Part shown: positions 31,653 to 31,806 of the stretch, piece by piece
Layout: every line of letters begins with the position of its first letter
How positions within the stretch are numbered: the stretch's first letter is position 1
Sequence record: ON470595
Direction: 5' to 3' (one strand)
Source of the DNA: Escherichia phage vB_EcoS-683R6
DNA length: 55,739 nt
Notes under the pieces: model-generated
Told to the model about the DNA's origin: nothing
Database searches by the model: none
The model's input: only the letters and a program-made list of their open reading frames with translations
Program-made: the position numbers and the translations under genes

Positions 31653-31728
31653 GCCGACTTAGCTCAGTAGGTAGAGCAACTGACTTGTAATCAGTAGGTC
31701 ACCAGTTCGATTCCGGTAGTCGGCACCA
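31653..31728 (+). tRNA. tRNA-Thr (anticodon UGU), phage-encoded, with encoded CCA
   Basis: Cloverleaf folded by eye: acceptor GCCGACT/AGTCGGC, D-arm AGCTCAGTAGGTAGAGC, anticodon stem ACTGA/TCAGT with loop CTTGTAA, T-loop TTCGATT (one T-stem mismatch). Confidence 0.7.
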
Positions 31729-31731
31729 TAT

Positions 31732-31806
31732 GCGGGTATCGTATAATGGCTATTATCTCAGCCTTCCAAGCTGATGATGCGGGTTCGATTCCCGCTACCC
31801 GCTCCA
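31732..31806 (+). tRNA. tRNA-Gly (anticodon UCC), phage-encoded, with encoded CCA
   Basis: Acceptor GCGGGTA/TACCCGC, anticodon stem TCAGC/GCTGA with loop CTTCCAA, T-arm GCGGG-TTCGATT-CCCGC. Confidence 0.7.

Follow-up and report, generated by a model that had tools for sequence, protein, structure and literature searches.

A tRNA-Thr(UGU) and tRNA-Gly(UCC) pair in the late region of a Rac-type prophage and its resemblance to host thrU and glyT

Lambdoid phages are known to carry tRNA genes downstream of the antiterminator gene Q. Post-Q tRNAs for Asn(GUU) and Thr(UGU) have been described in SfI, Sf6, ST64T, PS3 and P21 (PMC3636060), and the tRNAs of Stx phages lie 3′ of tR′ and are driven by a separate promoter of their own (PMC7547250). 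We examined a pair of adjacent tRNA genes, tRNA-Thr(UGU) and tRNA-Gly(UCC), in DNA of Escherichia phage vB_EcoS-683R6 (sequence record ON470595). The window is the whole stretch analysed, 55,739 nt (55.7 kb) in length. A first-pass annotation, made by a model from the sequence alone, had placed the pair in the late leader region, where Stx-type and other lambdoid phages were said to carry tRNA cargo, and the published phages listed above do have tRNAs in that slot.

Thr(UGU) tRNAs are also known from work on P2 Old. When a lambdoid phage infects a P2 lysogen, Old removes the anticodon arm of host tRNA-ThrU (UGU), and the cell dies (PMC12445682). The gene thrU encodes the sole UGU tRNA in MG1655. 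According to the same 2025 study, Old cuts tRNA-ThrU after C28 and C40, at paired CNG motifs (nt 28-30 and 40-42) accompanied by A37. Phage Thr(UGU) tRNAs, including that of phage 21, have an altered motif and a shortened anticodon stem and rescue the cells. Additional host ThrU was reported to confer “little to no protection”, and resistance needs the motif change and the stem shortening together (PMC12445682). The late-leader region is in addition the location of known prophage small RNAs (sRNAs), STnc100 and PasD (bioRxiv 10.64898/2026.05.13.724894).

The tRNA pair analysed here is an instance of a known, common and already annotated kind. We consider it reasonably probable that it provides functional second copies of thrU and glyT within a module that is complete from promoter to terminator, raising the supply of two single-gene tRNAs for the codons ACA and GGA. 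What may be new is confined to a structured RNA trailer and to the view of the cassette as a module.

The tRNA pair and its host counterpart

The two genes are located as follows.

31653-31728, + strand: tRNA-Thr (anticodon UGU) with encoded CCA (ARAGORN, Rfam tRNA model, RefSeq annotation)
31732-31806, + strand: tRNA-Gly (anticodon UCC) with encoded CCA (ARAGORN, Rfam tRNA model, RefSeq annotation)

Exactly two tRNA genes were called by ARAGORN in the window, with anticodons tgt and tcc. Coordinates and anticodons matched exactly those read by the first-pass annotation, and Rfam agreed on both genes. Membership in the Rfam tRNA family (RF00005) requires a score at or above the curated gathering score, here 29, of a covariance model that describes both cloverleaf structure and sequence. 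Searching with cmscan, tRNA-Thr scored 73.8 bits (E = 2.4e-14) and tRNA-Gly 63.1 bits (E = 2.1e-11). The full model (1-71) was covered and both genes are thus members, with scores far beyond chance. CCA ends, which had also been reported from the letters, are encoded in both genes (3′ ends ggcaCCAtat and cgctCCAgag, respectively). The spacer between the genes is 3 nt long (TAT). In an identical copy of the pair in E. coli 266917_2 (NZ_CP026723.1), the PGAP/RefSeq labels are likewise tRNA-Thr and tRNA-Gly.

Prophage tRNA-Thr was identical to K-12 thrU over its whole length (76/76). An A52:C62 pair in its T-stem was flagged as non-standard by cmscan. This is the single T-stem mismatch previously noticed in the first tRNA. 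It is real, and it is no defect, because host thrU, being identical, has the same mismatch. Prophage tRNA-Gly had three differences from K-12 glyT (72/75 identical), all structure-preserving. C6U and G66A compensate for each other within one acceptor pair, and C25U replaces G10:C25 by G10:U25. Such pair-keeping changes are as would be expected under selection for function.

The identity elements of ThrRS are G1:C72, C2:G71, G35 and U36, and those of GlyRS are G1:C72, C2:G71, G3:C70, C35, C36 and U73. When the alignments were read against these established rules, the ThrRS and GlyRS identity elements, the discriminator base and anticodon positions 35/36 were unchanged in the prophage copies. 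None of the GlyRS elements is affected by the three tRNA-Gly changes (at 6, 25 and 66/67). With the anticodon in a 7-nt loop and the synthetase identity elements kept, the genes are predicted to be true Thr(UGU) and Gly(UCC) isoacceptors.

The 154-nt pair was matched at 95-99% identity, in two pieces, by 5,421 of the 5,426 complete E. coli genomes searched. These pieces are host thrU and glyT of the thrU-tyrU-glyT-thrT-tufB operon. In the host, thrU is followed by T and glyT is preceded by AT. Together these bases make up the spacer TAT, and a clean single deletion of the tyrU-containing host segment would leave exactly this sequence. Most likely, the host thrU-tyrU-glyT operon was captured and its tyrU segment lost, which produced the pair, and the junction, only 3 nt long, is suggestive rather than proof of captured host DNA. 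In K-12 MG1655 there was one matching place (the host operon), which means that its deleted Rac prophage lacks the cassette, and in 266917_2 there were two, the host operon and the prophage. We ruled out that the pair consists of host tRNA genes lying at the edge of a prophage or at its attachment site. Phage genes of a Rac-type prophage flank the pair left and right, and the host operon lies at a locus of its own, in agreement with the phage-encoded origin first proposed.

The surrounding module, its relatives and its prophage setting

The spread of the cassette was assessed with a 54-nt query centred on the fused Thr-Gly junction, which the host operon is unable to match. The junction was found in 866 of 5,426 complete E. 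coli genomes (about 16%) at 1,041 places, and 142 of the records matched at an identity of at least 99%. Thr-3 nt-Gly is annotated in the phage records phi467, JLK-2012, PhiR47_1, vB_EcoM-606R7, vB_EcoS-689R5 and SerU-LTIIb. The arrays are stxAB-Thr-Gly-S in phi467, Asn-Thr-Gly in JLK-2012 and Met-Lys-Thr-Gly in PhiR47_1, and the LT-IIb prophage SerU-LTIIb has two copies of the cassette. Extended arrays among the relatives included Met/Ile-Arg-Thr-Gly and Asn-Thr-Gly.

Several copies in other strains had switched anticodons. A thrU body with UUU was labelled Lys (L018 649-724), a thrU body with UCU was labelled Arg (L005 1122-1197) and a glyT body with UAC was labelled Val (L019 728-799), the last with a damaged acceptor 3′ end. 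The JLK-2012 Thr(UGU) gene (L007 3495-3570), with CTG/CAT at the Old motif, was not called by ARAGORN and scored 49 bits with Rfam. The module also occurs outside chromosomal prophages, with 39 plasmid places among the homologues of the trailer described below. One of them, on the 78-kb plasmid pMB07081_contig_2 (L016 716-1170), consisted of a lone tRNA (Lys-UUU in ARAGORN, “tRNA-OTHER” in RefSeq) and a trailer homologue, beside an insertion sequence (IS) remnant.

The following features surround the two genes.

31300-31416, + strand: short segment that closes with a hairpin terminator (stem at 31379-31410 followed by a T-rich tail), from a terminator scan; travels with the Q gene
31456-31545, no strand assigned: AT-rich stretch with inverted repeats I2, I3 and I8 (21-nt arms, 95% complementary), from a repeat search; AT-rich block kept in relatives
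31562-31589, + strand: promoter-like TTGCGA-16 nt-TATTAT, the predicted tRNA promoter, from a promoter scan and conservation; alternative -35 TTGACG at 31546-31551
31597-31649, + strand: leader hairpin GGTTCTGAGGGGG...CCCCTGAAGAACC, ending 3 nt 5′ of tRNA-Thr; inverted repeat I5, present in the minimum free energy structure
31807-32164, + strand: structured non-coding trailer of about 360 nt, from fold z-score and covariation; long hairpin at 31931-32016 and a 3′ domain at 31998-32194
32165-32192, + strand: strong intrinsic terminator (8-bp stem with 5 G-C pairs, T8) between the tRNA unit and the holin gene, from a terminator scan

Similarity to other phages with this Q type covered 31250-31416 and ended there, about 115 nt after the Q gene. 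One phage with this Q type has an unrelated gene and then a holin gene, with no tRNAs. The 31379-31410 hairpin was also kept after a Q fragment in SerU-LTIIb. We regard 31300-31416 as a candidate PR′-leader-tR′ module of the DUF1133-type Q. A weak promoter, TTGATT(31296)-17-TTCAAT(31324), was read by eye and was matched by no tool.

Further downstream, the AT-rich block lies directly 5′ of the tRNA promoter-like element and is possibly an UP element or a regulator site. When the upstream regions of relatives were aligned, the TTG of the -35 and the TA(t/a)TAT of the -10 proved conserved in position, even behind a DNA methyltransferase gene or stxB (phi467). The relatives also keep the leader hairpin, in which GGTTCT/AGAACC has become GGTTCC/GGAACC, a single compensatory change. 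On thermodynamics alone its significance was unsupported (z = -1.1), and it was retained for its conservation and the compensatory change. The terminator stem and T-run (helix 13) were kept in all 9 homologues. A strong terminator before the holin gene would be required if the unit were transcribed in the lysogen.

We considered whether the tRNA promoter could be the Q-dependent PR′. This is unlikely, as the same element and hairpin are found behind different Q types, the methyltransferase and stxAB (phi467), and the Q module of other phages stops at 31416 after a terminator of its own. Conservation behind unrelated genes instead argues for a promoter dedicated to the tRNAs. It thus seems that a conserved promoter and a conserved terminator serve the tRNAs alone, which would then not be a mere part of a Q-dependent leader. 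The agreement of the predicted promoter with the Stx-phage arrangement (PMC7547250) also argues for this arrangement.

The trailer was found after the Thr-Gly pair in most of the relatives fetched, and its homologues occurred in 435 genomes at 60-100% identity. It was kept whatever the 5′ gene (DUF1133, classical Q, methyltransferase or a helix-turn-helix (HTH) protein) or the 3′ gene (three holin types or TerB). Some copies of the cassette had a different or much shorter downstream region, namely those of phi467 and PhiR47_1, which diverge directly after tRNA-Gly, so that the tRNAs occur there without the trailer. Against shuffled sequence, the fold of the trailer had z = -6.4 on the + strand and -2.9 on the - strand. 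A consensus fold of 9 homologues contained 107 pairs, with 94.7% of cells paired compared with 40-50% when the partners were slid, and a covariation score of 0.249 compared with 0.06-0.09 when slid. Changes on both sides of a pair were seen in 22 pairs, a number reached in none of 500 shuffles (9.0 +/- 2.3). Indels among homologues were not multiples of 3. A protein gene or pseudogene was ruled out by these non-triplet indels, by an open reading frame (ORF) that crosses the conserved terminator, by the strand-specific fold and by the compensatory changes. In E. coli UTAK-3 a coding sequence (CDS) for a “hypothetical protein” is annotated over the trailer and terminator (L011 1084-1497), probably a spurious call.

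The 3′ domain of the trailer (31998-32194) matched the full STnc100 model (RF02076) with 22.9 bits (E = 0.0033 over 281 nt), a score below the gathering score of 47, and it is not a member of that family by this threshold. The plasmid-borne trailer homologue scored 35.5 bits and a true STnc100 in the JLK-2012 late leader 107 bits. Sequence blocks such as CGGGAGGCACCCG.CACC are shared between the trailer and STnc100. The trailer is probably a structured non-coding RNA distantly related to the STnc100 family.

The genes on either side of the module are those of a lambdoid late region.

30757-31299, + strand: Q-position gene, a DUF1133-family, Q-like antiterminator (Pfam DUF1133, 357 bits; Phage_antitermQ, 27.1 bits with a cutoff of 26)
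32581-33754, + strand: lysis cassette (Pfam Phage_holin_2_1, Phage_lysozyme and Phage_lysis; RefSeq essD and rrrD), made up of the next three genes
32581-32796, + strand: P21-type holin (Pfam Phage_holin_2_1)
32796-33293, + strand: lysozyme (Pfam Phage_lysozyme)
33290-33754, + strand: Rz (Pfam Phage_lysis), with an embedded Rz1-like ORF at 33510-33695

Genes for DUF1367, YbcO/DUF1364 and then the DUF1133 protein precede the tRNAs, and close homologues of the DUF1133 protein are labelled “antitermination protein Q” in phage records. The tRNA genes therefore lie inside a lambdoid prophage between a Q-like gene and the holin, lysozyme and Rz genes, all on the + strand. Their placing between the Q-position gene and the lysis cassette, as first proposed, is borne out by the Pfam matches on both sides. 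What lies between the Q-module terminator and the holin gene varies widely, and other phages have unrelated cargo there. Just 5′ of the essD-type holin, 32460-32547 showed 78-81% identity to the 5′ part of a phiP27-type holin gene and looks like a remnant from module exchange. A small minus-strand CDS in RefSeq (about 32423-32548) overlaps it.

The window is E. coli chromosomal DNA that carries abgAB, abgR, McaS, smrA, dgcM, zntB, FnrS, dbpA and ttcA, followed by the Rac-type prophage. The latter carries intR, xisR, ralR/RalA, recET, kilR, racR, ydaSTUV, nin-like genes, lysis genes, trkG, and head and tail genes. It adjoins ttcA and is a fuller version of Rac than the deleted one of K-12. Rfam matches at gathering level were RalA (15886-16064), the antitoxin sRNA of the Rac RalR toxin, FnrS (11459-11576) and McaS (4497-4592), all expected for this chromosomal region. 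Positions 31400-32100 were 100% identical to E. coli 266917_2 (NZ_CP026723.1). Outside them, the differences were a few single-nucleotide polymorphisms and one IS3 element, which lies between abgA and abgR in NZ_CP026723.1 and is missing from the window (region of about 1400-3450), the first 1,400 nt or so aligning at a different offset. Overlapping alignment blocks at about 20898-21023 suggest a further length difference of about 125 nt.

Codon use and the weighing of explanations

Host codon use was taken from 14,137 codons of a core region of the same strain, where ACA occurred at 7.4 per 1000 (12.7% of Thr codons) and GGA at 8.3 per 1000 (11.2% of Gly codons). A baseline of the immediately flanking host genes (3,187 codons) was dropped in its favour as misleading, for it made the enrichment look smaller than it is, those genes being ACA- and GGA-rich themselves. 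Both cognate codons were over-represented in the prophage. ACA was used at 17.2 per 1000 (27% of Thr codons; odds ratio (OR) 2.57, p = 2e-13) and GGA at 15.6 per 1000 (22% of Gly codons; OR 2.20, p = 3.5e-10). A similar ACA bias has been reported for SfI (17.3 compared with 7.1; PMC3636060). ACA had the largest absolute excess of any codon in the prophage. In relative enrichment it ranked 4th (2.3x) and GGA 6th (1.9x), with TCA in between.

A comparison of ACA and GGA use in the late genes and an “ATPase-protease pair” with that of host genes had been proposed as a check in the first-pass annotation, and it came out positive, most strongly in AT-rich cargo. The pair in question (26064-29457) is the anti-phage system IetA/IetS (PADLOC, 474 and 998 bits), named IteA/IteS by PGAP, a name under which nothing relevant was found in the literature. 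In IetAS, ACA made up 41% and GGA 38% (OR about 4.8 for both). The corresponding values were 32% and 31% in trkG and 33% and 28% in the early genes. Late structural genes showed mild enrichment (ACA 23%, OR 2.0; GGA 17%, OR 1.6), and the lysis genes none (ACA 19%, GGA 10%). IetAS has a GC content of 40% and is also rich in AGA and AGG (together 37 per 1000) and in ATA (19 per 1000). The idea of codon supply is supported by correlation, and AT-rich cargo fits it better than the late genes do.

The reading that we favour, that of functional second copies, could work as follows. Host thrU and glyT are each the sole E. coli gene for their anticodon, and their products read the host-rare codons ACA and GGA. 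The cassette seems to circulate among lambdoid phages as one module, comprising promoter, leader hairpin, tRNA-Thr, 3-nt spacer, tRNA-Gly, the trailer of about 360 nt and the terminator. In the lysogen, its own predicted sigma-70 promoter (31562-31589) would transcribe the unit, and the terminator at 32165-32192 would halt transcription before the holin gene. RNase P and 3′ trimming would then release the tRNAs, and host ThrRS and GlyRS would be expected to charge them because all identity elements are host-like. The gene dosage of tRNA-Thr(UGU) and tRNA-Gly(UCC) would be doubled. During lytic growth, read-through of Q-modified polymerase from upstream may add transcripts. The extra supply could make it easier to read these two codons, whose use in prophage genes, above all in AT-rich cargo (IetAS, trkG, int), is two- to four-fold that in host genes, and might in this way bring a fitness benefit.

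Several points weigh against this account. Its promoter is a predicted element, recognised by consensus match and conservation. The codon enrichment is a correlation that largely tracks AT-richness. AGA (5.2x), AGG (4.7x) and ATA (2.6x) are more enriched than the cognate codons, yet the prophage has no tRNA for them. The lysis genes, which are the nearest co-transcribed genes, lack enrichment, and that of the late structural genes was not significant against the immediately flanking host genes alone. A host-identical tRNA-Thr would also be expected of a recent, still neutral capture. The pair might instead be a neutral hitch-hiker, a piece of the tRNA operon upstream of host tufB that was taken up by illegitimate recombination and spreads with phage modules without a selected function. 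The complete identity of the Thr gene to thrU, a spacer that a simple deletion of host sequence explains and the variability of the slot before the holin gene would all agree with this. We think it unlikely, as the cassette is present in about a sixth of the genomes, behind several Q types and before several holin types, with the same promoter-like element, leader hairpin and trailer. In addition, the tRNA-Gly substitutions are compensatory or wobble-preserving, and the anticodon switches and extended arrays of relatives suggest that the tRNAs are used and selected. Even less probable, in our view, is that the trailer RNA is the main product, for example as an Hfq-binding sRNA of the STnc100/PasD type in the lysogen, with the tRNAs mainly serving as 5′ processing or stabilising elements or as a strong promoter context. 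Its fold is strand-specific and supported by covariation, it accompanies the tRNA pair in most relatives fetched, and its 3′ domain, which closes with a terminator as sRNAs do, belongs to a graded series of STnc100 likeness (22.9, 35.5 and 107 bits). Prophage late-leader transcripts are moreover known sources of sRNAs, including StxS (PMC7547250) as well as PasD/STnc100. Opposed to this are the occurrence of the tRNAs without this trailer in phi467 and PhiR47_1, the sub-threshold STnc100 match and the structure-preserving constraint on the tRNAs themselves.

Similarly improbable is a role in counter-defence, in which the prophage copies would make good the loss of host tRNAs to defence nucleases that cleave them, chiefly P2 Old. 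The primary lethal target of Old is exactly tRNA-Thr(UGU) (PMC12445682), and the rescuing Thr(UGU) tRNA of phage 21 occupies the same post-Q position (PMC12445682, PMC3636060). Both tRNAs of the pair bear the Old motif (CNG at 28-30 and 40-42, and A37), and the JLK-2012 relative of the cassette has an altered CNG motif (CAT) and a 3-bp anticodon stem, like the resistant tRNAs. The Thr copy studied here, however, has the very sequence of the Old-sensitive host ThrU, extra copies of which conferred next to no protection (PMC12445682). Its CNG pseudo-palindrome is intact (CTG/CAG at nt 28-30/40-42), and its anticodon stem is not shortened, having all five pairs (27-31:39-43) where the JLK-2012 relative has only 3. 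With motif and stem as in the host, prophage tRNA-Thr is predicted to be Old-sensitive, and counter-defence against P2 Old is unlikely for this copy. Presence of the motif in tRNA-Gly was given little weight as evidence, for the motif is not rare and occurs in host tyrU too, and tRNA-Gly is not mentioned in the main text of the Old paper (PMC12445682).

A broader proposal is more speculative. Under it, 31546-32192 would be a mobile “tRNA-plus-structured-RNA” module expressed in lysogens, with the trailer an undescribed regulatory RNA distantly related to STnc100/PasD, and the host-identical pair would stand at the outset of a lineage whose members in other phages have switched anticodons (Lys-UUU or Arg-UCU on a Thr body) and anticodon stems that resist Old. 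We regard this as doubtful.

Meaning and comparison with known systems

The tRNA pair as such is routine, and it demonstrates that post-Q tRNA cargo of the usual sort persists in the fuller Rac, unlike in the deleted K-12 version. In the cassette we have a clear case of phages having probably taken up host tRNA genes, and it can be traced back to a probable deletion in the thrU-tyrU-glyT operon. Carrier strains gain a second gene for two otherwise single-copy tRNAs. This would matter for the expression of AT-rich horizontally acquired genes and for effects of ACA and GGA codons in hosts other than K-12, and it may also bear on how sensitive a strain is to defences that attack tRNAs, P2 Old among them. 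The module also offers a candidate prophage sRNA, its conserved structured trailer.

Compared with the host thrU-tyrU-glyT-thrT-tufB operon, the prophage cassette has the same gene order and orientation and near-identical Thr and Gly genes, and the flanking bases of the host genes account for its spacer. It differs in lacking tyrU, a 116-bp spacer, thrT and tufB, in its unrelated promoter, leader and trailer, and in its location in the late region of a prophage.

With the post-Q tRNA cargo of other phages (ileZ-argN-argO in Stx phages; SfI, Sf6, ST64T, PS3 and P21), the cassette shares the slot between antiterminator Q and the lysis or toxin genes, as well as tRNAs that read host-rare codons over-used by the phage. 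Like the Stx-phage tRNAs, it would have its own promoter 3′ of tR′ (PMC7547250). Unlike these, its identities are Thr-UGU and Gly-UCC, its genes are nearly host-identical rather than diverged phage tRNAs, and the Thr-Gly pair is linked to a conserved structured trailer. Old-resistant tRNA-Thr21 of phage 21 has the same anticodon and the same lambdoid genomic position (PMC12445682), but both resistance features of such phage tRNA-Thr genes are lacking in prophage tRNA-Thr.

The trailer taken by itself resembles STnc100/PasD, StxS and lambda 6S RNA in being a non-coding RNA of the lambdoid late leader that ends at an intrinsic terminator, and it has sequence blocks in common with STnc100. It is about twice as long as STnc100, with an extra 5′ domain and the long hairpin, and appears to be transcriptionally linked to tRNAs.

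Homologous Thr-3 nt-Gly cassettes, labelled tRNA-Thr and tRNA-Gly, are those of phi467 (Stx), JLK-2012, PhiR47_1, vB_EcoM-606R7, vB_EcoS-689R5 and SerU-LTIIb, the last of which also shares the trailer (88% identity). These cassettes have other neighbours (stx, LT-IIb, tciAB and other holins), and some relatives have switched anticodons or added tRNAs. The extra C25U in tRNA-Gly is a feature of the Rac copy.

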